From contig NW_019029008.1 of assembly GCF_002105155.1 (NCBI RefSeq), positions 434,001 through 490,187 on the forward strand: 56,187 bases of DNA. The letters are read 5' to 3'. Made by a program: the position numbers and the translations under genes. Source of the DNA: Lobosporangium transversale (lineage: Eukaryota). A model generated the notes under the pieces. The model saw only the letters and a program-made list of their open reading frames with translations. It was not told the DNA's origin and did no database searches. Positions 2,370-56,187 of this stretch are shown one piece after another; position 1 is the first letter of the stretch, and every line of letters starts with the position of its first letter.

Positions 2370-2642
2370 TTCTGGACTGAAGCAAGCTGACCCTTGTTAA
2401 AGTAAATGTAGTGCTGAAACTGTGCATGTACAAGCTACAAGGTCAATGACATATCTAAGGCCTGTGGCCCTTACTCATAATAAATTCAGTACAAAGCCTT
2501 GATGAGCCTACCGTGATTCTATCGCGATTGGCTAGGTTGAGCGCATATTAAAAAGGGATGTGTGGACGCGTCTGCAAATTATGGCTTCGCCACGCGTAAA
2601 TTCTGAGCGCTTCATTGTAGTGTAACAGTTGGCAAAAAAAAA
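2370..2642 (+). repeat. Dispersed ~270-bp non-coding repeat, copy A (inverted relative to copy B at 45068-45367)
   Basis: Shared blocks TTCTGGACTGAAGCAAGCTGA, CTGAAACTGTGCATGTAC, AAGGCCTGTGGCCCTTACTCATA, CCTACCGTGATTCTATCG, GTGTAACAGTTGG followed by an A tract. Confidence 0.85.
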
Positions 2643-3393
2643 CATGACGAAGATGAGGATCGGAAATAAACGTTTGTCGGGTGCGTGTGTGCGCATGGAG
2701 TAAGAAGTTTATGTGTGAGAAAAAATGAAAGAATAATTGAGACGAGTCAACGAAGGAATGAAAGAATGGAAAAAGAATAATTTCTATTAGTGTGTCACCT
2801 TGCATAACTTGTTTTATCGAGGGCTTAAGGAAGTAAAGAGAGTGACAAGCTTGGCTGGCCCATTCTTCAACATTAAAGTGCTATGATAGTTTTTTTCATT
2901 CATTGTCTATGACTTCTTGCCTCATAGCTGACTGTGTCATGGAGAAGGTCATTGAAGGAGTGGCCCAAATGGTACTTACTACCTGACCATGTGATAATAT
3001 GAGTTGAGCATGATCGAGCTGGAAAAAAACGAAGTAAAAGAATTCGGTATCATGGTTCCACCCGCTTACTTTGCACCACATGAATTATTTCTGCTACGAG
3101 CGCAACCACACAAACCCAGGTCTTCAACTTGTCACATGACAACCTTTCACTGTCCTGCACTTTTGGAGAAACTTTCCCGGCTGGGACAAATTTGCGATTC
3201 TAAAATGGTGGCAACGCTCCATTGTCATGGCTGTGGCTACAGCCTCCTCCGTCCTCTCTCTTTTTTCTTTTTCTTTCTTTATGCCTTAAACTCGTCCTTG
3301 CCTAGGATTATTACCGTCATATCTTACCGGCCACTGAGTATTCATTAATCTTCAAATGATAATGAACACTATAGAATTAGAGGACGAAGTGGA

Positions 3394-3521
3394 GTGTCAA
3401 ATAACAGCTTTGAGGATCCTTGTCAATAAAAAAAAGGGTTGTCAAATAACACCGGGCTCAGTGTTGTCAATATTTTACTATTTGACAGCCCGAGTTGTCA
3501 AATAGGTTAATTCCACCCCTT
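3394..3521. repeat. Cluster of six TGTCAA motifs ending in TTAATTCCACCCCT; possible DNA-transposon terminus with subterminal repeats
   Basis: TGTCAA(ATA) five times forward and once inverted (TTGACA) within ~110 bp. Confidence 0.45.
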
Positions 3522-15192: not shown

Positions 15193-15402
15193 CCTCATTA
15201 CATGAAGAAACATAAGACATTAGGCAAGTATTACAAATAGTAATAGGGGTAGTAAGCGAGCGTATATGTTTGATAAATCTAGTGTTCTTTTTTGTGAATA
15301 GTTTTTTCGTCTTTATTAAAAGGAACTTTTGCAAAAGTTCTAATTATCGAAATAAAATCTGTACAATTTTGGACTAGAAGACTCCTTCCCCTCCTTTTTT
15401 TT

Positions 15403-16665
15403 TTAACCAGACTGGTAGAGAGCAGGGCCTGCAACGATATGCTGGTTCAACTCGGTCAAATTGGCGGGTGTGACAAAGACATCTTCATCAACAAGTGCAA
15501 CAAATACAGTTCCGTTGATGATTGGATGACCCTCAGTGGTGAGACCGGGGTACAATTCTGGGACATAGGGCTGCTTTGTAGTGGCCTTTCCGACCTTGAA
15601 CTCATCACCGTTAGGCTCCGACCATTCGACATCGTCCAGTGGTGTGTAGGTAACATTCAATTGACTGATCCATGCAGCAAACTTGGGCTGTCCAGCGTTG
15701 GTGCTAGTCGTGTATTGGTCATCAGGTCCGATCTTCTTGCCAGGCTTCTCAAACTCAAACTCGACTACACGACCACCCTCACTCAAAGGTGGGCGGTCAG
15801 TTGAGATTGCAGGGCCAAATCTTGGGTCTGTGCTGTTGGGGTTATTGGTAATGAACAATCCAGGGAAGACTTGCCAGATCAGAGGGTGCTTATTATTAAT
15901 TTCGGGGCAAGAGACAATGTAGGGAACTTGAAGGGTCCATTGCATACTCTGGGTGATACCGGTTTGGAACCAGACTGGCATTGGGAAGAGACCCTCGAAC
16001 TGGCGGAAAACCATCTGCTGACGTGCTTCTGTAGTAACTGTTTGCAACAGCAGCTGTGCTGATGGACGCGAATTCAAGTGTTCGATAAAGCCAATGACAC
16101 CAGCCTCACCAATACGTGTCACCAACTTGCTGAAGCGGACAAACTCCTTGACAGTCTCGAACGGCCATTTGTAGGTGCAGGGCTTGGCCGCAGCAGGGCC
16201 GAGCATGTTGTAGATGTTAGTAGCGTGGCCGACCTCTTGATCTGCCATGTAAGCGACAAGTTCTCGATCAGCCTTGCTCAATCCCGCATCCTCAAAATCT
16301 TTGAGCGAGAACTTCTCTAGCGCGTACCGGAACAAATCAAGCTCAATCCATTCAGTGTAAAGAGCAATGCTGAGTGACTGGTAGTCAAAATCTGAGAGTG
16401 GATGGTACACAGGGGGCTCATCCAACCCGAGACCGCCGGCAGGAGTGTGAGGCTTTGGGGGCTCCTCATGAAGCTCACCATTGGAGACATAGCCCTTGTT
16501 TTCAGGGTATGGCGCAGTGATGTTGTTGGCATCAATTGGCTTCTCGTGAATGGACCTATTAGGGGCTTCTGGTGGGACGTCAGACCTAAAGACGCTCATA
16601 GGAGCGGCATTGATAAAGCTTAGGGCCAAGAGGGCGAGTGGAATAAGGTTGAACTTCGACCTCAT
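15403..16665 (-). CDS. Secreted Rds1-like stress protein, ferritin-like domain, ~420 aa, intronless
   Basis: Signal peptide MRSKFNLIPLALLALSFINAAP; motifs DFDYQSLSIALYTEWIELDLF, ADQEVGHA, TTEARQQMVFRQFEGLFPMPVWF typical of fungal Rds1/Ferritin_2; TATATAA on minus strand at ~16784-16790 favours the ATG at 16665. Confidence 0.85.
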   Translation of the reverse strand: MRSKFNLIPLALLALSFINAAPMSVFRSDVPPEAPNRSIHEKPIDANNITAPYPENKGYVSNGELHEEPPKPHTPAGGLGLDEPPVYHPLSDFDYQSLSIALYTEWIELDLFRYALEKFSLKDFEDAGLSKADRELVAYMADQEVGHATNIYNMLGPAAAKPCTYKWPFETVKEFVRFSKLVTRIGEAGVIGFIEHLNSRPSAQLLLQTVTTEARQQMVFRQFEGLFPMPVWFQTGITQSMQWTLQVPYIVSCPEINNKHPLIWQVFPGLFITNNPNSTDPRFGPAISTDRPPLSEGGRVVEFEFEKPGKKIGPDDQYTTSTNAGQPKFAAWISQLNVTYTPLDDVEWSEPNGDEFKVGKATTKQPYVPELYPGLTTEGHPIINGTVFVALVDEDVFVTPANLTELNQHIVAGPALYQSG

Positions 16666-19307
16666 GTTGGTAGATCTGGAGTTCGAGGGGATAGGAGGGG
16701 GTAGGCAAATGCTAGATGTAATGTGAATGATGAAGAGTAAAAAAAAAAAAAAAAAACTCTTTGGGAAGGGCAAGTTACTACCCTTATATAGGATATACAA
16801 GGTGTCTACCTCCTACCTACTTTCTCAATCATTTGCAATCAGTGTGGCATCACCACTATGAAAGATTCACACGTCACCCCTGTTCCTGAAATAAACTCCA
16901 CCCTTTAGCAAAGCAAGCATCCATGGTCACTCTTTCTGCACAAACTATCCAGATTTCTTTATCGCTTGCGTGCATCGCATGGTACCATGCGCGTAAGGGT
17001 TGTGGTCAAAGTTAATCTTAATACCCGAGCCTATCTTGGGACGCCAATCTGAGTTTGAACAAAGTCTCAATAGCGATATTTAGTATCATAGTAATCAAAG
17101 ATATTTTTATATGAGACATGGCGACGTATAGCGCGAGCCAGAATGTTTTATTTTTTTATTCTAAAGTGTCAACGTTTTCTATAAATTGCGGAATGAGTGC
17201 ATGGATACTTACATCAGTACCGTGCGATAAAATGCTCACTAAACTTCCCCAGTATAGCATTTGAAATGCGTTACTGACCTGCATAGACCCTATACTGATC
17301 AGTTTGCAATTATGACATCAACTTGATGTTCCACACTTGCTCTCACAGCGGTTTTCCCTTTCTCTCTTTTTTTAAAAAGTGAGCATGATGAAAAGTTGCG
17401 CAGGTTATAATGAATATGAATACATATAACGTTAGAAGGAATAGGCGTGAGAAGAGGGATAATGCATGCGCGATCGAAATCTAAAAAGAAGTACCAATAG
17501 AATGCCTTATAAATGATGTCTGATCTACGTGATTGTCACTTTTTTTTTAGTCTACAGCCTATTCGCATAATATGTAATAAAATAGACCGGTCGGTCAATT
17601 AAAACTAGTGTTTGTATATATATTACTTTTATGTTGTAAAATACTGTTCAATCTCGTTTGGTGCCATGTATGATGTTTTGAGATTGGAGCGACATAAATA
17701 GGAGATCCCTTATCATTCCTTTTTGAGGACATGAAAGGAGCACTTTATTGACTGCTCATAGTTTTTCCTAAAATAGCCTTTCAGGGTTCAGAATCTTACT
17801 GTCCAAATTTCACTACTCTTTTGTTCGGGAACACCTCAGATAGTATAGTCAGTATTTAATAGTAGTGACAATAATAACATTAATCATAATGTTATTTGTA
17901 AAAGAGAACGATTGCATCCTAAATTTGAAAATAAGATGTCATATAGCATAATTCCCTATTGATGATTTTTACAGTGGACCAAAGTATACAAGAAAAAGAG
18001 GAGTACAGTCTGTGGATCACTGGCAAAAATTGTTCACGTCGTTGTAACGTAATCTAATCGGTGGTAATACAAATATTTTTGCCGGAAATATTTGCTAGTC
18101 ACAATCCAAACAGACCTTCTATAAATATATAAATATATCATCACCCTAGGAATGCAGACGCGTTTCTCTCAAGCCTTCGAAGTGAGAGGTTACCCTAGGC
18201 TCGTAACCAACCTAAGATTATCCTCTTTTCATTATTCCAAAAAAAGAAAAAAACAGTAGCAGGCATTGGTGGGCAATGAGGCAAGGAGTGTTTGGAGGTT
18301 AGAGATTGAACCAATTGTGGTCTGCACAGAGGTCAATGCAGACTAAAAAAAAAAAACTTTCGAATGATAGACATTGCAACATCACTTTACAAGCTACTTG
18401 ACAAGCAATCGTAGTGGGCGAGCTTGGACAGCAAGTAGAATATTCATGTTAATAAAACGATTCCAACTCCCTTATGTTTCTTTCAAAGTTTACGCATCCA
18501 CACCCTTTTATTTCCATTATCTTACTAAGGCCTATCGCTCTCAGCAGATTACTTTAATAATACTGTAATATATAATAATAATAATAAAAGTATCTGAAGC
18601 ATAGGAAAGGGTTCGATCAAAGGTTTGGATGCCTCATCTAATAATCAGTCCCGTGCTTTACAAACTTAGAATACCTGCAAGTTTTAAAGTTGTGGAGTGG
18701 ATGGCACCCAGCAGCAGCCAAGTTTACACAGAGAATAACATCAATATCGAGCTGCACTTAGTCGGGTACACAGGAAAATATTGTTTCCGGAGGTTCACAT
18801 GCCAGAATAACTAATTTTGTACCATGAAGGGATAGGATATTCAAATCTTTAATAGAAGTCTTTTGTTGATGATTTATGATCGGTGCTCTTGTTTTTTATA
18901 GTTCATGATGCTTCATTATATTCTCTAGATCAATATCTTTTTCTCCATCCGCATCTTTTTTATTGCACTGTATATAAAATCATGACCACCAACGTTTCTT
19001 TTTGACAAAAAAAAAAAAGCTTCAGCATAATGTAAGACTTACATAGCAGTGATTCTTTTCGAAATAAATGGAAGATTTTAAGGATTCAGTCAACGTATCT
19101 AGTCCATGAAAGTCCACTTATAGCAAAGTTTGATACAGACGTATACGCTTTTTTTGAATTAAATTAGTGGCTGATTCACTTGCAAGCAAGCAAGCTAATA
19201 GGCTGCCAGTAAACAGTACATGAAACGGGCCATTACAACCACAGCCACCACAGCACTCAGTTGTTTCACGAAGTGTACGTACATAATGTTGACGTTTTGT
19301 TTTCAGC

Positions 19308-19316
19308 AATATAAAG
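19308..19316 (+). promoter_or_regulatory. Candidate TATA box for the 19429 gene
   Basis: AATATAAAG ~115 bp upstream of the ATG, followed by a pyrimidine-rich leader and A at -3 (AAACCAAG-ATG). Confidence 0.45.
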
Positions 19317-19428
19317 ACGAGCCTTCGAAAGGAATTGATCAGCTCTTGTACCAACTTTTTCATACCACCAACCCAAACTTATCTCTTGCTTTTTCCCTTC
19401 ATTTTCACTTTAATTCATTTAAACCAAG

Positions 19429-19773
19429 ATGTCTCATACTCTTACGATTGACGGCAGAACCTCGATTCAATTTGAATCTGTCTCTGGGCTGGACGCTTCT
19501 GCACTCGAGACAAAGCCATACATCCACTTACACAAAGGTCGCGGCACCGCCACCTCTGAGCTTCTCGAATGGATGGCGTCGGATACTGTCAAGGCTACAC
19601 CAAAGAACGTCACCATCAGCTCTCCTAACCAGTTGACCGGAGGCCAGCAGGTATGGACACTTACGGAGGCCAAGCCAGTCCTTGTTTCGGGCCAGGGTGT
19701 CAATCAGAATACGAATGAATTCGCAGTTGAAGATCTGAGACTGTCTGTTGCGGATATGAAGCCTCAGCAATAA
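19429..19773 (+). CDS. Phage/contractile-injection-system tail tube-like protein (T4 gp19/Afp1/Afp5 family), 114 aa, intronless
   Basis: Collinear motifs IDG...F.SVSGL, I.L.KG....ELLEW, KNVTI, W.L.EA.P...SG...N..TNE.AVE.L.L match the gp19-family pattern IDG...F.E.SGL, ITLKRG....ELW.W, RK..SI, W....AWP...GP.LNA.SNEVAIE.L.L. Confidence 0.8.
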   Translation: MSHTLTIDGRTSIQFESVSGLDASALETKPYIHLHKGRGTATSELLEWMASDTVKATPKNVTISSPNQLTGGQQVWTLTEAKPVLVSGQGVNQNTNEFAVEDLRLSVADMKPQQ

Positions 19774-20305
19774 GCATAAAAAAAAAGCCAAGAAATGATG
19801 GAAGGAGGAAGAGAGAAAGAGGGATCCTCATTTTTTCTCCCTCTATTTCATAAGGCATGTACATATACATACGAACCTCGAGTCTTTCTTCATGGATCAA
19901 GATCTCGAAGTTGTCATCTATTCATTGAAAAAAATAAAAAATAAAAAATAAATAAAAAAAATAATTAAACAAAAATTAGTACAGGTCTGTTTTGAGTTTT
20001 TTTTTTATTCTGATGTATGATCCTTCTAAAACTGGTGGAGTGGAGTAGAGTGAGGCCAGGTGTTGGTAGGTAGGGGTTATAGGATAGGGCTCAAGGGAGG
20101 TAATTTCATCCCAATAGACACTTTTCGAAGCCCCCCGTTTTTCCTTCGAGACCTGCTAACAACCCTTATCGAAGAAAAGTTAAAAGTTTGACCTTTGACC
20201 TTTTACGTTTTTGCGTTTTGGAAAAAAAGCATAGATTTATTTGTTACACAACTAAACTAAATTCAGTTCACAGAGAGAAATGATCTTTAGCTTTTGCCCT
20301 TTCCG

Positions 20306-20341
<36 letters not shown>

Positions 20342-20349
20342 GACGCAGA

Positions 20350-20880
20350 GACCCAAGGATTCGGCTCATTTTTTTTTGATGTTTGCATCAGATTTGTGAG
20401 GTGGAGCCAGAAGCGCTTGAAATCCAAATAATACAGTTTCATTCTCTTTCTTGCAGTAGCTTGGACTCCATGAACCAATACACCTTTGAGGAAAGGGAGT
20501 TCACAGCCATCTTTTGTCAACGCTTTGATATTATAAGTCCATATGTCTTTCAGATCATGCACCAGCTTGTAGTGATTGAGGAATGGTTTATTGGCATCTT
20601 TTATGCCAGGTTAGCATACTCAAACGAGACAAGCTGTAATTTTCCACGGGATACAATAAGCATCAGCTTGGTGATTATATTGGCTTTTCTATCACAGATG
20701 CTCTGTTGATGTTTTTTCTTCACTAGAGTCTTTGCGACACCTGATACTTGGAGCTTGGTAGGATGCTGATCAACACCATTCTATAGACCCATTTTCTAGC
20801 CCTTCTTGTCCTCAATGAAATAGTGAGTCAGCCAACGCTCAAGTACCGCCGTCTGTGCCAGGTTCAGTTAATTGAAAGCA
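20350..20880 (-). pseudogene. Decayed fragment of a PD-(D/E)XK/REase-like gene of the type expanded in early-diverging fungi
   Basis: Interrupted translation ...DRKANIITKLMLIVSRGKLQLVSFEYA...KLVHDLKDIWTYN...VHGVQAT.RMKLYYLDF with several stops/frameshifts. Confidence 0.3.
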
Positions 20881-20929
20881 TCCCTTGGTCGAAGTTAGTT
20901 CAATTATCCGTAGACACAGAATCGTAGAC

Positions 20930-21301
20930 CGTTGTCGCCTTCTGCCGCTCCACTCAATGTCGGTATTTGAGGCTAGGCTAGTGCACTGCTTTCTGATTGA
21001 CAACCAAGTTGTAAAACTTTGACCGTCTGGGTCGCCGTATTAGTGCGCTCATTACTTGGCAACAACGCGCTCTCTCCGACGTACGAAAGGCTGTCCCAAA
21101 TCTAGACTTAAAGCCTTGAATTATTCTGACTCACAGTTCCAAAGGTCAGTGATATCTCGTTTAGTTCTCACAACGTTCTTTATCTCGGTCAAGTAATAAT
21201 CTGTACCACCAAGAGTAGAGTTGATTCTGGAAGGTAACCGTCAACTGCGGCCGTGTAATATCCAGAGCGGTGAGTACGTCTGCAAGCTTGTACACCAAAA
21301 T
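20930..21301 (-). pseudogene. Fragment of a Fanzor/TnpB-like nuclease gene (Mortierella-type), RuvC-I region
   Basis: Minus-strand translation ILVYKLADV..RLPSRINSTLGGTDYYLTEIKNVVRTKRDITDLW..*FKALSLDLGQPFV..FYNLVVNQKAVH*PSLKYRH*VERQK; multiple stops and frameshifts. Confidence 0.6.
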
Positions 21302-41019: not shown

Positions 41020-44000
41020 TCAAGATGGAGTCAAGGCCTTGCTAGGCTTGAACGCCTCCGACAACGTCAGCGCCGTTTCATACCCAATCGAGTTGCCTGT
41101 AAAATTCAAGGAGCTCAAAGTCGTGTTAAACTTCCGTGCCTCCAACAGTGCAAGGGCTCCTTCACTCCCAATGGAGTTTCCTCCCAAGCCCAAAGCAGTC
41201 AACGCCATGTTAGTCTTGAGTGCCTCTGACAGTGAAAAAGCTCCCTCGATTCCAATTGAATTGTGCGCCAACTCCAAAGTCGTCAAGGTTTCGTTTACCT
41301 TGAGTGCCAATGAGAGTGCATAAGCTCCCTCATTTCCAATTGAATTGGATTCCAAGTCCAAAGTGGTCAGAACCGTCTTCGTCTTGAGTGCCTCTGACAG
41401 TGCAAGAGCCCCCTTCTTCTCAATCGAATTACCCTTCAAGTTCAACGTGGCCAAAGTTGTGTTTCTCGCAAGTGCCTCTGACAGCGCGAGAGCTCCTTCA
41501 TCCCCAACTGAATTGCCCTCCAAGCACAAAGCGGTCAAAGCCGTGTTACCCTTGAGCGCATTTGATAATGAAAGAGCTCCCTCCATTCCAATTGAATTGT
41601 ACGCCAATTCTAAAGCGGTCAATGTTGTATTACTCTTGAGTGCCTTTGATAGTGCACGAGCTCCTTCATTGCCAATTGAGTTCCATTTCAACTCTAAAGT
41701 AGTCAAAGCCTTGTTCTCCTTGAGCGCCTCTGACAGTGCCTGAGCTCCTTCCTTCCCAATTGAGTTATCCCACAAGCTCAAAGTAGCCAAAGCCTTGTTG
41801 GTCTTGAGTGCCTTTGATAGTACAAGGGCCCCTTCCTTCCCAATTGAGTTCCATCCTAGATTCAAAGTGGTCAACATAGTGTTTGTCTTGAGCGCCTCTG
41901 ACAGCGCAGCAGCTCTTTCCTTCTCAATCGAGCTGCCTCCCAAATCTAAAGTGATTAAAGCTGGGTTGGTCCCCAGTGAGTTTGCAAACACTTTAAAGTC
42001 ATTAGCTTCCATTAATCCAGGTTTCATCGAAAAAGATAATTTGTGAAGATGCAACGGCCTTTTGGGCTGCAAACTGGAAAGCTTTATAAGGTCCGGGGAT
42101 AGAACAATATGAATCGTCTTCATCTTGCTCAGTCCCATGATCCGAACCAGGGTTTCATACCGCGTGGATATTGGAAGAAATTTCTCGGTAGTGCTTTCTT
42201 GAGACCTTCCGAGATCAAGTCGAAGGATCGATACACTTGACTTCTTTAGTGCTTCCTCGAATGCAACAAGGTCAGCTCTTGTCCACTCCCAGCCGAATGT
42301 AATATCCAACTCGTAAACACGCCTTGCATTAGCTAGCACATTGAAGAATTCTCCAGGTTTGCTTTTGGGATACAGGGCGATAATCACTTTGCCAAGATAC
42401 GGGTCATATTTGCCTCCATTATTTTCCACTGCACCAGCAAACTCTTTCTGTTCTTTTTCTCTATATGTCGAATGATAGTGGTCGAGACAACCCATTTTAC
42501 GTGACCTGTTTCCGTCGTGATCCTGTACAAGTTGCCAAATTCCCTGTCTTCATCCCTTATTCGAAGAAATGTGCCCAGTTGTCGGAGATCTGCCCCTTCG
42601 AGTGCCTCATGCTCATCGATTGTATTGATGTTTTTCAACACCGGGTACTCAATAGAGAGCTTTTCCATGTATTCGATTGAGTAATTGATAGCAGCAGTCA
42701 AGTTTGGGATTGGTGCTAGACAAGCAGCTATGGGCGCTCCCACCCTGAGGCAATGTAAAATGATGAGCATGTGCCTTCCATACTTGCGAAAAAACTTTGT
42801 GCTGTCACGGACTTCATATCCATCATGCTTAGCAAGGTGGATTTGGTTTTGGCTGCTCTTGCTTATCTCCGCAGTGAGCTCTCCGCATTCACAGAGGAAA
42901 TGAAGGCGGAACTTATTTCCCAGGACATTCCTTGGGTCCCACTTGGAGGTGTCGACAGGTAAGATGATAAACAGCCGTGGGATTGGATACTCGTGTAGCT
43001 CAAAGTTTTGGACTAGGATAGCATTGGCATGTTTTTGTAGTGTGGCGAGCTTATCGAGCGCTTTATTTTGCAACTCAAGCATTTGATCGTCTCTATCCTT
43101 AGCCTCCAGTTGCAGTGCAAGTACCATGTCCCCTTTCTCTCTGACCTCTAATTGCAGCTGATGTATTTCCGATTGGAAAGCTAGTATCTTGTCATTTTTT
43201 TCTATGGCCTCTAACTGTAGCTGAAACATATCCGATTGTACTCTACCCATCGCCGATTGCAGTTCAAGCATTTGTCTATCTTTCTCTTCGGCCTCCAATT
43301 GCAGTTGAATCATATCTGATTGATTTATATGTCATATCTGATTGATTTATATGCATCGCCGATTGCCGTCGAAGCATTTCGTCACTCCCCATACTGATGC
43401 CTTGCAGCAGCTCCATAGCCCTTTCTATATTAGAGTTGACCATCTCAGTTCGTCTATTATTGCGCGTAACGAGGGATGAATTGGAAGACCGTGCCAAATA
43501 TGATAATGGTAAATGGTCCTGAGTAGCTAGATTTGTCGATCTTTTTGATCCAGGCAAATGGGTGGCGACGTTGTTGACGCCCTTGCTACTACTGTTGCTG
43601 TTATCATTGTTGTTGCTCTTGCTGTTGCCGTTGCCGTTGCTGGCGCTCTTGCTGTTACCGTGATTGTTGTTGGAAATACGGCCGCCGTTATTATTGTTGC
43701 TATTGCCGCTACCATTGACACCGGTGTCTCTGCTGCTACTACCAGGCTGCAGTCTTTTTGTAACGACATCCAAGGCCTTGTCAGGGTAAAACGCGATGCG
43801 TGGAGGCTCGATCCTAATAGGCGGCCTAAAGAAAGAAAGAAAGAAAACGTGTTAAAATTGAGCTCTCTCTTCTCTTTCTGCCACTCTTAGGGTAATTGAT
43901 AAGGTAAAATAAAGTAGCCAATGGGAAACATTAGTACCTGTTGCATTAGTGTCCAAGAGGAATCGAATGGGGATCCCATCCAATTCGAATCCCGACGCAT

Positions 44001-46495: not shown

Positions 46496-48967
46496 ATGGT
46501 CGCCACAAGGAGTTCAACACAAAAAAACATAGCTGCAAATGATTCCACAAGGAGCCAAGCACAAATAAAAATGACTGCAAATAAGCCTGAGGATGCCTCC
46601 ACACTCAATAAACGAAAAAGAGAAAACCAACACCCACAACGAAAAAAGCGCGCCATCTCACCGCTGCTGGAGCTGAACTGCGTTGTCGAGGGAGAAGCAA
46701 CGCCGTTCCCAGTAGAGATTTTCTGCGATAAATCGGTCAGGATGCTCAAGGAGGTTATCAAAGCAAAGAAAGCCAATGCATTGAATAATATCGGCGCTGA
46801 CCAGCTTACCCTCTACAAGGTTTCCATCCCTGACAAAGGCGAGGCCATCTTTGAATCAGAAATCAAGTCAAAAAAGGCTCTTACAGTCGCGTCAAAGGAG
46901 CTTGGGAACATATTCAATTCTGAACTTCCAAGGAAAACTATTCATGTTTTTGTCAAGCCACCACAGCGAGGTATATCTTTGGCTCTTGATGGACTGATTG
47001 TTGATATTTCCAGCTGATGAAGCTTGGTTTATATCTTAAACGGCCATGTGCATGATATCACCATTTGGTTTGTGCCTTGATAACTCAACGTTCTTTCTAA
47101 TTATTCGCTTTTGATACTTAGCTCAGAAAAGAAAACAGGATGGAGATTCTGGTGAGTGCTTTTGGCTGAGAACCTGGTTATTGATCATTCTAGAGTGATG
47201 TGCAATAAATCAAAAATATTAATTTTGATCACTCTATCTCTTTTATCAGAGTCACCCTCTAAAAAAGCTCGTTCAAGCATGAGTAGCAGAGGTGATCTTA
47301 TGGATGCGATTACAGAAGCAGGGCTTGTAACGAAAGAGATAGTGGATGGTGGCCCTACCCTCTCGCCTCTCAACTCCAAAGAGAGGGTCAAGGTGCTTTC
47401 GTACATGGGGGAGGCATCGGTAGATAGTATTTACTACAGTATTATTAGCGTGGCTCGCGAGCTCCGAAATTCTGGTGAAGCTATCAAGGATTCCAAAATA
47501 TTGACTGCCCCTGAGGGTCGTACCTTCCCTATTGTTGATACACGGCATCTTTATATCAGAGAAGAATATAAAGAGCTTTATGACCATATTACAGCCAAAC
47601 TCACTACTCCTCCCAAAGTATATTGTTTGAATCGACTCTTTGTCACTGGAACACCTGGAATTGGGAAGTCAGCCTTTTTGGTCTATTTTGCCATCCGCCT
47701 CATTGCCGAACACGATGAGGAAAACCCACCGATTATTATTTTCCAAGAGAAGAAGAGTACTAGATGCTATGCTTATGGAGGAACAACTTGCCAACGTTAT
47801 GGGCATATAGGAACATTCCAAGATTTCCTTGCTCGGCCTGAAACGTGGTACTTAGTTGATAGTGGTGATAATCCTCAACCAGATCACGCCAGGACGATAT
47901 TTTCGGCATCACCAAGAACTCTCAGTGGACAGTACGATGAATTCGCCAAGGAAACTAGACCATATAGCTACTATCACATGTCAATATGGACTTTGGACGA
48001 GCTTAAGGAATGTAGAGCCAATGTAGAGCATTATCATCGAATGGATGAAGAATTTTTGGAGGAGCTTTTTTGCAACTTGGGGGGTGTGCCAAGACAGGTC
48101 CTACAGGGTCCATCTGATGTACTATGCAGAGATCAAAAAGATATTGACGGTGCTAGAGAGACTGCGTTTCAGTGTGTCAATGATGCCATTGGCCTACTCC
48201 AGTCCCCAGGAGATCTTTTTGACCTCTTTATTCCAGGAGATAAAGCGGGTAGTCATTTACTCCATAGAGTCCCCACTTCTGACCACCTCCGCTTCCACCT
48301 GGTATGGGCATCTCCTTATGTTCGATCAAGGATCATCATGGAATTAGATCAGACTTGGATCGACGCGTTGAAGCGACTTGCCAATTCTGACAGTGAAATA
48401 AAAAAAGGACCTTCGTTTGAACTCTATGTTCACTATTTAATTCGATGTGGTGGACTTCGGTTTCCATTTAAGGATCTTCAGTCAGACGAAACAGGATTCT
48501 TTGATCTTCCGAGGGAATCGGAAGCATTATTTACCAGGACTACAGCAGATTTTTCAACATTCTCCAAAACAACAGACAAGTTGTTTCTACCATCTATACC
48601 CAACTTTCCGTGCATCGATTTTGCATTGGGACCCAACAAGCTATTTCAGGTCACAGTATCAGAGAATCATCCGATCAAGCAAGCACCATTTAAGGAGATA
48701 ATTGATTATATTACTGGACCCTGCCCGAAGGGAAACCGATCAGATTCGAAAGGAAACCGATCAAAGTCGAGTGGAAGTGATGATACCATTTTCCTCTACT
48801 TTGTGGTACCAGGATACATATATGACAATTTTAAGGCTCAGAGGTTTGTTATAAACGATGATCAGGATACCAAGACAATACCTGGATGCTTGAAACATGT
48901 AAGACAGCGTGTCATAAAAATCGACATCAATGTTGTATATTCAGGCGGTACGAACCTGAAGAATTAA
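46496..48967 (+). CDS. Crinkler (CRN)-family protein: ubiquitin-like header + P-loop NTPase + C-terminal REase-fold nuclease, ~740 aa; exons 46496-46970, 47122-47151, 47250-48967
   Basis: Header LNCVVEGEATPFPVEI...LKEVIK...ADQLTLYKV...IHVFVKPP; Walker A GTPGIGKS, Walker B WYLVD, GGVPR; PNFPCIDF...LFQVTVSENHPIK; phase-1 introns join in frame. Confidence 0.9.
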
Positions 48968-50001
48968 ATCGAATACCAATTAAGTGGATGAAATTTGTCA
49001 TGTAAAAGAAAAGCATTATACCTGTTCCTTGAGGGTTTTTTACAATAGTACATCCTTTATGAATGAAGCCATCATTATCCACTTACCTTTTAGACGAATA
49101 GATAGTGTGGTTTAATCAGTCCTCCCTTCTACTGGGGCATTTAGGACTTTATAAAGCTTCCTGTGATCATCATGCGATCTTGTGTGCAAGAAAGGGCGGA
49201 ATTTTGTGATACTATTACCAAAGAGTTTTGTAAGAACGGATAGAGATGAAGGATCCTGTGGAGAACCCAGTGAGAGTCTGATGATGAGACCCAAAATCAT
49301 ATTATTATCACCAGGACAGCTGGCATAGGAAATTATCCTTTCTCATATGCTTTGTCATCTGGATGCTTACCACTTGCGGAAGCCCCATCAATTATCATCA
49401 TCCAAGGCGCCAGAACGTTTACCGGGAGCTAGGATGACAGCTCCGCTCTAAAGACATAAATGTCGTTTTAGCCCCATGGTGCGTGCACGGGATGGCAATC
49501 TGCGACCAATGAGATCATATTAGTTGTATGGTCGGCCAATTCAGTGTCAGTATGTGAAGGCGGCGCGTCTAGAATCTCTAGGCGTCCAGGGACATGAAAT
49601 AAAAAAAACATCAAGAATTTGGCCCAAGGCTGCCACGAACTTGACCAGTAAAATGTGATACAATATTGGATTGTGTCGTCGTCAATAGATTAATAGTTCT
49701 CGGTATATTAATGCTACATGCTGTTGAGGGCATCAATCAATCTCACCAGAATCATTTCCTCTCACATCAATTACCTTGGGAGCTATGCTAGATGGATGGG
49801 AGATTAGGAGGAAAAGGTCCTTGATGTCTGGGATATCCACGCTTGTTTATAATCTCACCAAATGTTCTGTGTCTTGCGTTCATAGGCGGTTAATCGCAAT
49901 TTGGTTTTCGTATACCCCTTGAAGAACGCAAACAAAAATGCCTTTATGTTTATACTCGTCAATTTACCCTTTTTACTGACTTGTGTATTTCAAATACTCA
50001 T

Positions 50002-51731
50002 AGTCAATAAACGGTTTAACAACAATGAGAAAGAATTTTATTCTAAGGATTGGTCTGAGTTTATCAAGGCTTATATTTATGGCAACGTTAAATTACCAGT
50101 AACAGACGGCGCAATGTCAGGCTTCCCAGATGCTTGGCGTCGATTTCAGTCAGAAAAAAGAGAGGCGACACATAGACCGTCACTCCTGTTCTTTGACCCT
50201 CCTGGTTTGGATGGCTCTTATATGAGCTGCGACTCTAATAACAAGGCAAAAGAGATCTTCGTACATACTTCGTCGCATAGTCTCAGCTTTTGTCCACTTT
50301 TTGGAGCATCTGGCTGTGGAAAGACTCGAACAGTTATGGACACACTCTCGCAAAACTGGGGATTTTATTTTAATGCTGGTCGAGATGATCGCGGACCAGA
50401 TGATGTCTGGTCTTTGATTACTTCTGTCAATCTTGGGGCTGGTGTTAACTTATCGGTAAACACTAATATTGCTATGTCGACCACTACCTGCCTGCTCCTT
50501 GTTCGTGTGTCTATCCTGTTATGTTGTTTGAGTTTGTCCGAAGGTAGAATGATGCCTAGCCAATGGATGCTATTGCAAGTGTGTCCACAGGTTCTTGGAG
50601 AAGTTCATTGAGGAAACTCGGTTCCATCCAGGACACTTCAAGGCACTTGTACGATATTTGGAAAAACAAAGTTCCTCAAGCTCTGCATCAAAGCTGAGAG
50701 GCCACTTTAATGATCAAGCAATCGAGATGCTATATGCCTGGTCCTGTGGTCGTCTCCGTCCAATGATCACTATAATAGAAAACCTCATTGGGCGTGCCGA
50801 TGCTGGCCTTGGGAAGCAAGAAATCAAGGGCCTGGTGTCGTCGCTCACTGATCCAGGATATAAAGAATCTGGTAACCTATGCCATGAATAATCTAGAATT
50901 CTGAAGCGTATTAACAAAGGGGATGCAGGAATTAAAAGCAGTGTCGAGATTAGGAAAATCTTCAGTCGAGCCGTAAAGAATGGATTACTCTATGGTAAAG
51001 ACCTGATATTGGAGTACAAAGAGCCTGTTCCGGTCGAGGCTTCGTTTGTTCGAATTGTCGTTAATCAAAGGAAGAAGGAGTTTACAACTATCGTTGAGCC
51101 AATTGCATTTATAGCAGCGATTAACTTGTTTGAAATGGATGACCCTGAATTGGTTAAATTGGTTAATAGTGTGTTGTTAGACGCCCCTACGTCTGGCACA
51201 AAGGGCACACATTTTGAGTATTTCAGTCCCGCTTTGTTAATTCCAATCTTCCAGAACTATAACAATGAACGAATTCTTGGATACTCACTGTAACAAAGAC
51301 TCAATACATGAATCCAAGTTAATCTCGAATACCTCTCATCACCGTCCTCTCTACCCGGCTTTGCTCGAATGACATATCCTTATTGCTGTTGCTTAGGCCT
51401 TACTTATCGCGTTGCCTTATCATGTTGTCTTATCATGTTTTCTTATCATATTGTCTTAACATGAACAGGGTGATTATTCAGTAGCTAAAGTCAAAGAAGT
51501 TCCTGCCATCAAAGACAAACGAATAGAAACGACGTGCTTAAAATTAGCTTGTTGAACTTCCTTGAAAGCGCAAGGGAGTCCCTCGAGAAGTCAGAGTTGA
51601 CTCGAGTTATGGAGGATGAGGGAGAAGGAAGCAAGCGCAAAGAACTACAGGCAAGGAGGACATCAAAGAGAATTGTCGATAAAGCTCAAGCTATGGAGAA
51701 TAAGGAAGAGTTGAGCAAACCCAGCGGATGA
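50002..51731 (+). pseudogene. Decayed Crinkler-type P-loop gene of a second subfamily
   Basis: KLPVTDG..GFPDAWRR..RPSLLF, PLFGASGCGKTRTVMDTLSQNWGFYFNA, GRLRP, PVEASF, IVEP; broken into several ORFs by frameshift and stops; no header exon seen. Confidence 0.7.
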
Positions 51732-52577: not shown

Positions 52578-55500
52578 ATGTCTAATATTAATAAAGTACC
52601 AATTAACGAAGATGTTGATATGGAAATCTCTTCACCAGAGAATGGCTCAGGCTTGACACCTGTCGAGCAGTTGAACTTATTGGTGGCTAGCCTGGTCGTA
52701 GATACGACGGAGAGTGTAGTCGAGTTCGGCAGTGATGCTGTTCCCGATATCGAGAATGTTACGATGCTTCTTCGAAGTTATAGACTTCAGAAGGAGGAGA
52801 CACTCAGAAAGAAGGCATTGCTGTTCCTTAGGTACAATGATGCCAAATCAAAGTTAAGAAAAATTGACATTGATGAAAAGACACTTACCAAGGCCTTAGG
52901 CGATCTCGCTCAACAGAAGGCAGACATCTTGAAGGTCTTAGTAAGACAAACTGAAGACTTGAATAGTTCTATTGAACATATGGAGGAGGTCAGAAATGGC
53001 TTATCTTCAAGCGAGGACGTTTCGATTGATAGATCGAGTGTGTCTGAAGCAGATAGTCACCGTATAACGGTGAAATGGGATCCTGCTAATCCCGAACATG
53101 ACGCACTTCATCGAATCTTCAAAGAAGAGAACATTCCTTTGATGGAAGATTCAGAAGAGGTAGACTATACCAAGGTCAAGAAGAAAACGTTTGCGGATGC
53201 GCCTATGCTTGATTTAGACGTGTCCAAGGTTCCCGGCAAGAATATGGTCAAGGAAATAGCAATCAGGGTTGTCACTTTCCGTGATGACTTTGAGAGGATA
53301 TTCCGTCGTAACCTTTCTGATGTTCTTTTCGACAAACTAGCATGGGATTACTTATCCCTCTGCGTTTCCAAAGTGTCCGGCCTGGCGCGAGACTATGACG
53401 ATCTCATCAAGAAAGTGCCTCTTCAAGACAGGACCTGGTCTCGGGCAGTTACATGCTTGAATAAAGCTCTAAAGTTTGACATTCTAGGGGCTTACATCGC
53501 TGATATGGCGCTAGTTATGAGGCCTGAGAAGAATGACACTATTAGGTCGTTCGCGCAACGATTGCTACCACTGGTTGAGGCAGCTGGAATCCCAGATGAT
53601 GGCTGCTATATGCTCATCAAAGCTTTATGCAATCATCTGTCCGACGTAGGATTTCAGGCTGTCATCAAGGAATTCGGCTCAGTGAAAAGTGTTAGCTCTT
53701 TGAAGGAGTTTCTAGAGTTCCTAGAAAAGACACCAGGTGCCTTAGGTGAGAAACGAACCGATGACGCCCATTGGTTTATCCAGAAGTATGGAGGAGACGC
53801 TGGAGAACAGTATTTGCGATCCATCAAGTCCAGATCGGAATACACTCCTAGAGAGGTTCCGAGATCTAGTCATAAAAGATCTCGACTTAATGCCAATCCG
53901 TCAAGTGATAGAGAAGCCAAGAAGGCTAAACCATTCAAGGTCTGGTGTAAGGGAACGGAGAAGTGTAGGTCGAATCCGTACAAACATGCCCCGGAGGACT
54001 GTCGGTATGCTAAGGATCAAGTCAGAGATCATTCTAAGGATAAGCCCAAGGACGTCAAGAGAACTGATGTGCGCAAGCCGCTTGCCTCAGTCAGTGCTTT
54101 TAAGAGGATTAGTGATAGTGCGCTCATAAGAGACATAATTCCGAATAAAGAATCCTTCTTTTCCTCGTACTCAATTGTTGAGAAAGCTTGTATCAAGCAC
54201 CTAGGGGCTTTCAAAGGTCCCGCTCCTGGTGATAATAGAATAGCTGTGCCTATATTTATAAACGGGCAACAATATACAGCATTGTTAGATCCAGGCGCCA
54301 CAACTTCTTTGCTCAGTAAGGAAGTAGCCATAGAGCAAGGTATTCGCTATGGTCGAGTACCAGGAGAATCTATAGCAATGATAGAAAAAGGGACTAGCAC
54401 GGATAATGCCATTACTTGTGATAAAGTCCAATTGGTCTGCAACAATAGATCTGGAGAATATCAATTGTCGGTCATGGACATTGAGTATTATGACTTCGTG
54501 TTGGGAATGGATCTCTTCGCTAGACTCGGCTTTTCCATCACGGGAATAGCCATGCCGGAGATACGAGAGGAGGAATCCCTATGGGTCCCATATGATGAAA
54601 AACCTCAAGTCATTCCGTCACAAACTCCAGAAAGAGAAAACAATGCTGAATTCAAAGCATTGAAAGAAAAGTTCCTGTTAGCACTGGAGCCTTATTTACA
54701 GGCGAATGAAGCCATCTCGCCAAATTCATTTTGCAATCTTGATACAATGAAGGTCCAGCTAAAGGTTAAACCCACCTGTATCATCCAGGAAAGATCTCGC
54801 CCATTCCATTCGCAAATTGAAAAAGAAGAAGTGGAAAAGACCATCCAGAAGTGGCAAGAAACGGGTGTTATCGTTCCAGCACCTAAGGGGTGTCCGTATA
54901 ATAACTCCCTGACAATGGCAGCACGCCGTGACCTGGATGCTAATATTCTGAAATATAGAGTATGCCTTGATCCAAGAATGTTGAATCGTCAACTAGAGGA
55001 TACTGATGTCTTCCTCTACCATTAATCACTGATATCCAGCAGAGGGTAGCAGGGCATCTGTATTTCACCGCAATTGATCTGTCTCAGGCGTATCATCGCA
55101 TGCCTGTAGAGAAATCAAGCCAACCACTAACTGCATTTACGTACGGTGGTAAGCAATATATGTTTGCTAGAGCACCTTTTGGTTTAAAACCCCTCACGAG
55201 TATCTTCCAAAGAGGAATGTCACAACTCTTAGATGATCTGCACTTTGCTGACAATTATGTGGATGACATTATTGTCTATTCGCACACAGCAGAGGATCAT
55301 ATTCTTCATGTCAGCATTGTCATAGAAAGGCTTACAGCTGCAAAGTTGATAATCAATAGAGAAAAGAGTAAATTCCTTAGTACAGAAGTGCTACTACTGG
55401 GGTTCATAATCAACAAAGAAGGACGCAAAATAGATATCAACAAGGTTGCTAATGTGCATTCATGGACACCACCTACCAATAAGAAGATGGTTCAACGCTA

Positions 55501-56187
55501 TTTAGGCCTCTTCAATTATTTTAGGGAGTATATACCCTTGTACAGCTCGCTCACAGCACCTCTAAGATGCCCTGCGCAATGCCAAAGGCACTTTTGATCT
55601 TAATAAGGAGCAAATGCGAAGCTTTAACAGCATCAGATCGCTTATAGCCCAAGCTCCAGCCTTATCGTTCCCTGATTTTACTCAGCAATTCTTTGTAGCC
55701 ACCAGATGCCTCTAACGTAGGCATAGGAGCTGTCCTATATCAGCTACCGGGTGGCAAGGAAGATGAAACCAAGGTCAACTACATATCCTTTCAAGCCAGA
55801 GCATTGCATAAGCATGAGAAAAATTACCCAGCTTACAAGAAGGAACTCTTAGCAATTATTTTTGCACTAATGAAATTTCACCATTACCTTTGGGGAAGAA
55901 GATTTACATTATATACTGATCACAGACCTCTGACGTACATTCATGAACAGAAGGAGTTGCCACAAATAATCCTGAATTGGAAGGCCACTCTGCTCAACTA
56001 TGATTTTGAATGTATTTATCGTCCAGGCCTGCTGAACATTATTCCAGACGCATTATCTCGCGCATTTCCTGAGGAATTGTGGAAGTCTCCTAAAGAAGAA
56101 CAAGCTACATGTTCTACGAGTCGGCAGATTGCTTCTATGAGGCGAGGAACAGAGACTACCGAGAATGTTCAGGCAGCTCCACAGTTC
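52578..56187 (+). CDS. Gag-Pol polyprotein with three single-base frameshifts (~55013, ~55565, ~55703); partial at 3' end
   Basis: 815-aa ORF followed by RT/RNase H motifs in shifted frames (FPLPLI, PLDALR, ATDAS each restored by a 1-nt correction). Confidence 0.85.

Follow-up and report, generated by a model that had tools for sequence, protein, structure and literature searches.

The locus and its chromosomal setting

The window (the whole stretch of Lobosporangium transversale DNA analysed here, 56,187 nucleotides) contains, at positions 19429 to 19773 of the forward strand, an open reading frame (ORF) whose product, here called P0001, has the family signature and fold of a contractile-tail tube protein. 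Phages, bacteria and archaea are the sources from which such proteins have been described. The features of the locus are as follows:

15403 to 16665, reverse strand: divergent neighbour, a fungal gene with a Ferritin_2 domain (Pfam), used as a linkage anchor with no claim of functional kinship to the ORF
19310 to 19315, forward strand: TATAAA, at -119 (the TATA of the transcribed neighbour is at -125)
19359 to 19428, forward strand: pyrimidine-rich leader (0.75 at -70 to -11) and start context ACCAAG-ATG (neighbour: 0.72, ACCAAC-ATG)
19429 to 19773, forward strand: P0001, gp19/Afp1/Cis1-family tube-fold protein of 114 amino acids, without N-terminal arm and with a shortened hairpin
19492 to 19518, forward strand: residues 22-30 of P0001, a connector of about 9 residues in place of a β2-β3 hairpin of about 27 residues (alignment, models)
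19525 to 19533, forward strand: His33-Leu-His35, where the family has Thr (96%) and Lys (84%); candidate binding face (alignment)
19933 to 19960, forward strand: AATAAA-rich stretch, putative 3'-end signal, recognised by eye

The ORF is physically integrated in the host chromosome. In run X1 a single unitig of 4,787 bases spans positions 15202 to 19926 at a depth of 107 and carries the ORF and the Ferritin_2 gene together; run X2 agrees, joining the ORF to its fungal neighbour at a depth like that of the flanks. Unitigs from two further studies, X3 (16768 to 19926) and X4 (16768 to 20014), show 0 differences over 3.2 kb, and pieces of X5 and X6, which are C>T/G>A-converted DNA and not RNA, also map to the ORF. 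The unitigs of X1 and X2 join the ORF to the fungal gene, and X3 and X4 agree with them, which upholds the fungal location given in a preliminary description of this DNA, where a misassembled bacterial contaminant had been named as a refuting outcome. An artefact of that kind could still be argued from the fact that the four runs containing the stretch, X1 to X4, all carry a flag that the assembly may have been made from them. Because the ORF shares one unitig with a neighbouring fungal gene at host depth, and with a promoter layout that is eukaryotic, we consider this reading already largely refuted and scarcely credible.

The rest of the window is eukaryotic, with genes for an Hrd1-like ligase, a muniscin, an F-box protein and a Crinkler, a Ty3-like element, and GT..AG introns in RNA contigs. 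The family named in the preliminary description, Mortierellaceae, would fit the motifs present. A spliced gene lies at 22857-24394 (a 2,815-base RNA contig, three GT..AG introns listed), followed at 25011-26809 (reverse strand) by a gene with a C5 cytosine methyltransferase domain, which we take to be Dnmt2-like. Two overlapping ORFs at 41020-43313 (reverse strand), comprising a coiled-coil-like part and an LRR_6 array, are probably one NLR-like gene, either split by an intron or frameshifted; a Crinkler N-terminal domain followed by P-loop-like ORFs occupies 46496-50611 (forward strand), and the Ty3/Gypsy-like element, with its aspartyl protease and reverse transcriptase on separate ORFs, 52578-55597 (forward strand). 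A broken Tc1/mariner-like element lies at 21486-22461, 1.7 kb downstream of the ORF; it is multicopy, with a summed depth of 2,600-3,500 in X2 at 82% likeness, and a second such remnant is found at 27763-28170.

Around the ORF itself no mobile-element ends were found, and no bacterial gene remnant lies beside it. Queried with 406 ORFs taken out of 8 bacterial loci, most of which are eCIS, the window gave only 5 matches, all of them tube proteins falling on the P0001 ORF; within these 56 kb there is no sheath, spike or baseplate gene, as the preliminary description had also reported. The Ferritin_2 neighbour is covered by an RNA contig. Contigs of the RNA-type run X7 cover that neighbour and the spliced gene at 22857-24394 and leave the ORF uncovered, and since such contigs drop weak transcripts this was not used as evidence; no RNA run is listed as containing the ORF stretch.

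The transcription and translation signals are of the host type. The TATA box, the pyrimidine-rich leader, the A at -3 of the start codon and the downstream AATAAA-rich stretch, all listed in the preliminary description, are present, and the first three occur jointly at 0 of 372 intergenic ATGs (singly at 59, 9 and 122 of them). As was also claimed there, no Shine-Dalgarno motif is visible by eye before the ORF. The GC3s of P0001 is 0.52, where 0.355 would be expected from intergenic composition (P 0.00035), and its codon score lies within the range of host chunks, a range reached by 0 of 70 chunks of the G052/G085 loci (small Burkholderiaceae genomes, see below) and 1 of 39 of the Mycetohabitans locus. 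The host codon model is fitted equally well by 44 of 322 bacterial tubes, the top scorers being AT-rich, and by 0 of the 89 with similar GC3s; because the model rests on 12 host ORFs, we treat the codon evidence as moderate. Promoter layout and codon use thus both appear host-like, the latter with moderate confidence.

Family, fold and missing assembly elements

The four motif blocks named in the preliminary description (TIDG...FESVSGL; IHLHKG..TSELLEW; KNVTI...VWTLTEAKP; SG...) are all present in the 114-residue translation, and the assignment to the gp19/Afp1 family made there is sound: P0001 scores 34.2 bits against Pfam PF06841 (Phage_T4_gp19; cut-off 28.2, E 2.6e-8) and 50.6 bits (E 2e-14) with a profile made exclusively of bacterial tubes, for which the four other six-frame matches in the window reach at most 5.3 bits. 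Against TIGR02241, a phage tail region subfamily, it scores 31.2 bits, under the cut-off of 62.4, and it has no PHROG match; among solved structures the one closest in sequence is Pvc1 (E 5e-4). The length of the ORF is by itself weak evidence, since an ATG-initiated ORF at least as long arises in 19 of 300 shuffles of positions 16901-21300. The single-exon reading agrees with an identical record in NCBI/UniRef/eukprot (no RNA lies over the ORF). An upstream exon that might supply an arm was considered and rejected; visual inspection offered one GT..AG pair, 19275/19428, which does not keep the frame, and the profile is silent upstream.

The preliminary description had made its case depend on a gp19/Hcp fold, and the β-sandwich and helix of the tube and Hcp proteins are indeed recovered. 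A model in the ESM Atlas, independent of our own alignment, matches a PF06841 cluster with a TM of 0.84; an AlphaFold2 model (pLDDT 88, from a 51-row alignment drawn from the tube family) predicts all core strands and the helix; Foldseek places AlgoCIS, PVC and Hcp chains in its top ranks; and in a wide structural search Hcp proteins and eCIS tubes rank within about 1 Z of each other. The likeness to Hcp/TssD is structural, there being no Hcp/TssD profile row for P0001 in Pfam or NCBIfam.

The preliminary description overlooked the loss of the N-terminal arm and of most of the β2-β3 hairpin, and this is the main new point about P0001. In a model of the full-length tube P0010 these elements comprise residues 1-16 and 38-64, respectively. 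In the model of P0001 the first strand begins at residue 3, with no arm before it, and the YP/WP-x-P arm motif that is seen in 7adz and in most alignment rows has no counterpart, the profile finding nothing upstream. Measured between the conserved Phe and the conserved Gly, the hairpin region of P0001 has a span of 23 residues, as against 40-43 in 243 of the 258 bacterial tube ORFs measured (7 additional ORFs gave no measurable span). The ORF, then, is intact in that its frame is open, as had been stated, and yet both the arm and the long hairpin of a functional CIS inner tube are missing from its product.

It is therefore predicted that P0001 does not build tubes, and we hold this to be quite probable, arguing by analogy from other tube proteins in which such elements were deleted. 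In T5 pb6, deletion of the long loops or of the N-terminus impairs tube formation, and changes to the long loop abolish it in the lambda, SPP1 and T6SS tubes, according to PMC5717097 and the work cited in it; the SPP1 loop makes ring-to-ring contacts (PMC7666168). One might suppose instead that the subunit stacks by bare ring-to-ring contact to give a fungal nanotube or scaffold, given that the core strands and helix are predicted to be present and that the near-invariant residues F15, G20, L21, G37, W48, W76, P83, N96, A99 and E101 are retained. The absence of both assembly elements speaks against this, as do the failure of other tubes' deletion mutants to polymerise (PMC5717097) and the observation that, among 206 tube ORFs lying within CIS clusters, none has a span under 32, and we judge such stacking very unlikely.

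Conserved polar residues have also been swapped in P0001 (T33H, K35H, N80E, K85L, D90G, E104R and E108A), and three acids conserved in the tube family are missing. From the alternation of residues along the strands, as opposed to coordinates, we infer that these residues face the lumen, which in the AlgoCIS tube is negatively charged (PMC8894135). The fold has been kept and the assembly surfaces have not. Ancestry and fold make P0001 a genuine gp19/eCIS tube-family protein; by its defining features it is not a functional CIS tube.

Bacterial relatives and the donor

In our locus survey, bacteria themselves often carry tube genes that stand alone. The hairpin-shortened tubes (span of at most 37) comprise 8 lone genes, 5 of unknown context and 2 in a CIS cluster, and the full-length tubes 22, 17 and 204, respectively; these counts cover loci L003-L082 and L128-L207, obtained with a query rich in short forms, among kin that are not independent, and 6 of these 15 short entries are questionable, being overlaps or fragments (L149, L201_810, L142, L155, L154 and L190). 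Spans of 23-25 occur in six bacterial tubes (L143, L161, L189, L197, L135 and L150), four of them lone and two of unknown context, and the neighbours of the lone short tubes are unrelated enzymes and transporters. A cut hairpin, with spans of 23-32 and no CIS gene nearby where flanks exist, is seen in L143:5971-6372, L189:3905-4351, L135, L150, L197:1456-1842, L161, L145 and L128. A tree built without the hairpin columns calls for 5 changes (bootstrap 4-5; the starred branches force 2), which suggests about four to five separate hairpin losses among the lone bacterial tubes. The sequence sets do not include locus L114, and the unpublished genomes G539, G439 and G412 support no claim made here. 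Since lone, hairpin-shortened tubes exist in bacteria, part of the remodelling of P0001 may predate its transfer.

A full HMMER scan of 1.84 billion representatives returned three matches: P0001 itself, a repeat artefact (P0003, rejected as a relative) and P0004, a metagenomic tube of 128 amino acids with 34-36% identity to P0001, so that the best relative is bacterial. The 90% cluster of P0001 has one member. A word search found no orthologue among 6 candidates other than P0001, longer forms were found in 0 of 274 candidates, and scans of metagenome and viral DNA gave 0 of 131 and 0 of 61 stretches, respectively, with no phage record either. There is no orthologue in any other fungus among annotated proteins or, for unannotated DNA, in the one metagenome scan; the relatives found come from prokaryotic or metagenomic sources and none is marked eukprot. 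Where the preliminary description had seen a candidate for an undescribed system, we find one orphan gene with neither orthologue nor partner. The literature searched, with most subscription journals outside its coverage, gave no fungal or other eukaryotic member of the tube family, judging by titles and the openings of abstracts. The text and two supplementary files of PMC11291939, a survey of horizontal gene transfer in early-diverging fungi whose set of 44 may not include L. transversale, list no gp19, PF06841 or tail-tube xenolog and one phage tail lysozyme, and a term search of PMC12696581 gave 0 matches.

The absence of a fungal orthologue, together with the bacterial tubes of span 23-25 and a lone, strongly diverged tube in genome G052, where a sheath was not found, lends some weight to the view that the remodelling took place in a bacterial lineage of lone, hairpin-shortened tubes and that what the fungus carries is a copy without function, acquired fairly recently. 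Against it, nothing bacterial exceeds 36% identity among the 1.84 billion representatives; nor is the ORF flanked by any remnant of a bacterial gene, and its host-like codon use and a promoter triad that matches the neighbour's layout and is absent from all 372 intergenic ATGs are further points against a passenger. We regard this view as rather doubtful.

That the gene was transferred from a bacterium is highly probable, and the horizontal origin proposed earlier is supported by the match to the bacterial-tube profile combined with linkage in a fungal chromosome. An eCIS is a likelier donor than a phage, because phage tubes match P0001 by fold at only 6-16% identity and there is no PHROG, phage or viral match. 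Endofungal bacteria have genome sizes such as 1.9-2.8 Mb, and six Burkholderiaceae genomes of this size from one genus were examined, tubes being found in 4. A sheath is present in G085, G069 and G112, three of the four genomes of that genus tested, and was not found in G052, the 2.8-Mb genome that carries the lone tube (L121:1477-1923, reverse strand; G052:C1:1552539-1552880; 39 bits; context L208). The surroundings of this tube are housekeeping, WD40, LRR and IS genes, three congeners have a full eCIS, and direct BLAST against P0001 gives E 0.04. A full eCIS is also encoded by the endofungal Mycetohabitans endofungorum, and the tube of that locus shares 28% identity with P0001 (E 0.05). Across the Burkholderiaceae, 37 of 396 genomes match P0001, at 17-24 bits only, and 5 more are unscored. 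According to PMC11291939, Burkholderiales endosymbionts are the main gene donors to the Mortierellomycota.

Phylogeny leaves the donor group wide, and the donor may or may not have been an endohyphal bacterium. In three trees P0001 falls next to Afp1-type tubes, each time on a branch that lacks a support star; AU tests on quick, non-converged trees reject none of three alternative groupings; and on a fixed tree 86 of 111 placements are not rejected, the best adjoining L121 at a point where two long branches meet. The summed placement weights are 0.42 for the Afp1-type tubes, 0.20 for the P0004 group, 0.23 for others and 0.09 for the last group, and the motifs are mixed.

Constraint, proposed role and comparison with known systems

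The end branch of P0001 is long: it amounts to 1.9-2.1 changes per column, where the medians are 0.23-0.28. Even so, 10 of the 14 near-invariant columns are retained, as are 59 of the 68 columns of the polar/hydrophobic pattern. In neutral simulations (10 bacterial tube genes, substitutions only, no indels), the open frame, the invariants and the pattern were jointly preserved in 0 of 15,000 runs at 33% identity and 0 of 15,000 at 40%, and in 0.06% and 1.1% of runs at 50% and 60%. Since neutral decay from a typical tube never reproduces P0001 at 33-40% identity, the branch has been constrained; the constraint may have acted within the fungus or already in a donor outside the sample. The gene is probably maintained, with selection supported indirectly by this constraint, the promoter layout and the codon use, and its present-day expression and selection seem likely.

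We consider the transfer from bacterium to fungus genuine and P0001 most likely to be, today, a non-polymerising, Hcp-like binding protein. In the scheme that we propose, the inner-tube gene of a bacterial injection system became a fungal nuclear gene; the loss of the arm and hairpin would have ended tube building and left a stand-alone, Hcp-like ring or monomer in the cytosol; and a new binding face around His33, His35, Asp102 and Arg104 would bind a new ligand. A cytosolic location is suggested by the lack of a signal peptide by eye, the side on which these residues lie by strand alternation in place of coordinates, and the ligand by the identity of the residues, a first and weak guess being either a divalent metal or some small acidic partner. 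The full reading, of an expressed ring or monomer with a rebuilt binding face, we put forward tentatively. The lack of a fungal orthologue counts against it, because a useful gene long kept might also occur in relatives.

A more pointed role has been weighed, in which P0001 mimics an eCIS tube in the cytosol and would either soak up the tube-loaded cargo or cap the tube ends of bacteria that inhabit or attack the hyphae. The complete eCIS loci of M. endofungorum and of three of the four G085-genus genomes tested would provide the occasion, as would the record of Burkholderiales as donors and the placement of P0001 beside Afp1-type tubes; a toxin associated with the Mycetohabitans eCIS is toxic to yeast (PMC11297309). 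Yet the charged residues that a mimic should retain are those that have been replaced, the tree placement is one among the 86 unrejected, with long branches meeting, and eCIS assemble inside the bacterium (PMC8894135), beyond the reach of a cytosolic fungal protein. We think such mimicry unlikely. That a domesticated tube, with its polymerisation parts cut away, acts as a cytosolic ring intercepting or sensing the injection cargo of hyphal bacteria is more speculative and decidedly improbable; if true, the fungus would have turned the weapon itself into its own defence.

Returning to the non-polymerising, Hcp-like protein that we favour, the closest known systems are the eCIS tubes Pvc1, Afp1 and Alg1/Cis1 (PF06841; PDB 6j0b, 6rao, 7adz), with which P0001 shares its family, the β-sandwich and helix, and the near-invariant residues. 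It differs from them in length (114 amino acids against 142-156), in having no arm motif, a cut hairpin and replaced polar residues, in falling below the TIGR02241 cut-off, and in lying on a eukaryotic chromosome behind a eukaryotic promoter, in a window from which sheath, spike and baseplate genes are absent. The top structural rows belong to the T6SS proteins Hcp/TssD (Bacteroides Hcp5, 7yw0, and Flavobacterium Hcp1, 6bdc; Z 9.6, rmsd 4.3, 101 residues aligned), with Pvc5 (6j0n, Z 8.6) within about 1 Z of them, and Hcp and P0001 are both compact. Identity to Hcp/TssD is 11-19%, with no Hcp/TssD Pfam match, and the ancestry of P0001 is gp19/eCIS, with no T6SS. Hcp is a ring-shaped receptor for cargo and provides a functional analogy for P0001.

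The bacterial xenologs of early-diverging fungi (PMC11291939) are of bacterial origin and, like P0001, intronless in over half of cases; unlike P0001 they are mostly metabolic. The lone short gp19 genes of uncultured bacteria (P0004, the P0044-P0059 group, L143, L161, L189 and L197) and L121 are solitary where flanks exist, as P0001 is. The lone bacterial tubes keep more of the family signature (70-88 bits against PF06841, with 39 for L121 and 34 for P0001), and the end-points of the deletions differ between them and P0001, which may or may not descend from one of them (86 of 111 placements are not rejected). Being a single orphan gene, P0001 carries less weight; if expressed, it offers a small protein, simple to purify, on which to study the tube fold without its machine. 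Hairpin loss is common to P0001 and the lone short bacterial genes, though not to L121, and this suggests a recurrent use of the fold for purposes other than tubes, for which one assay could inform both.
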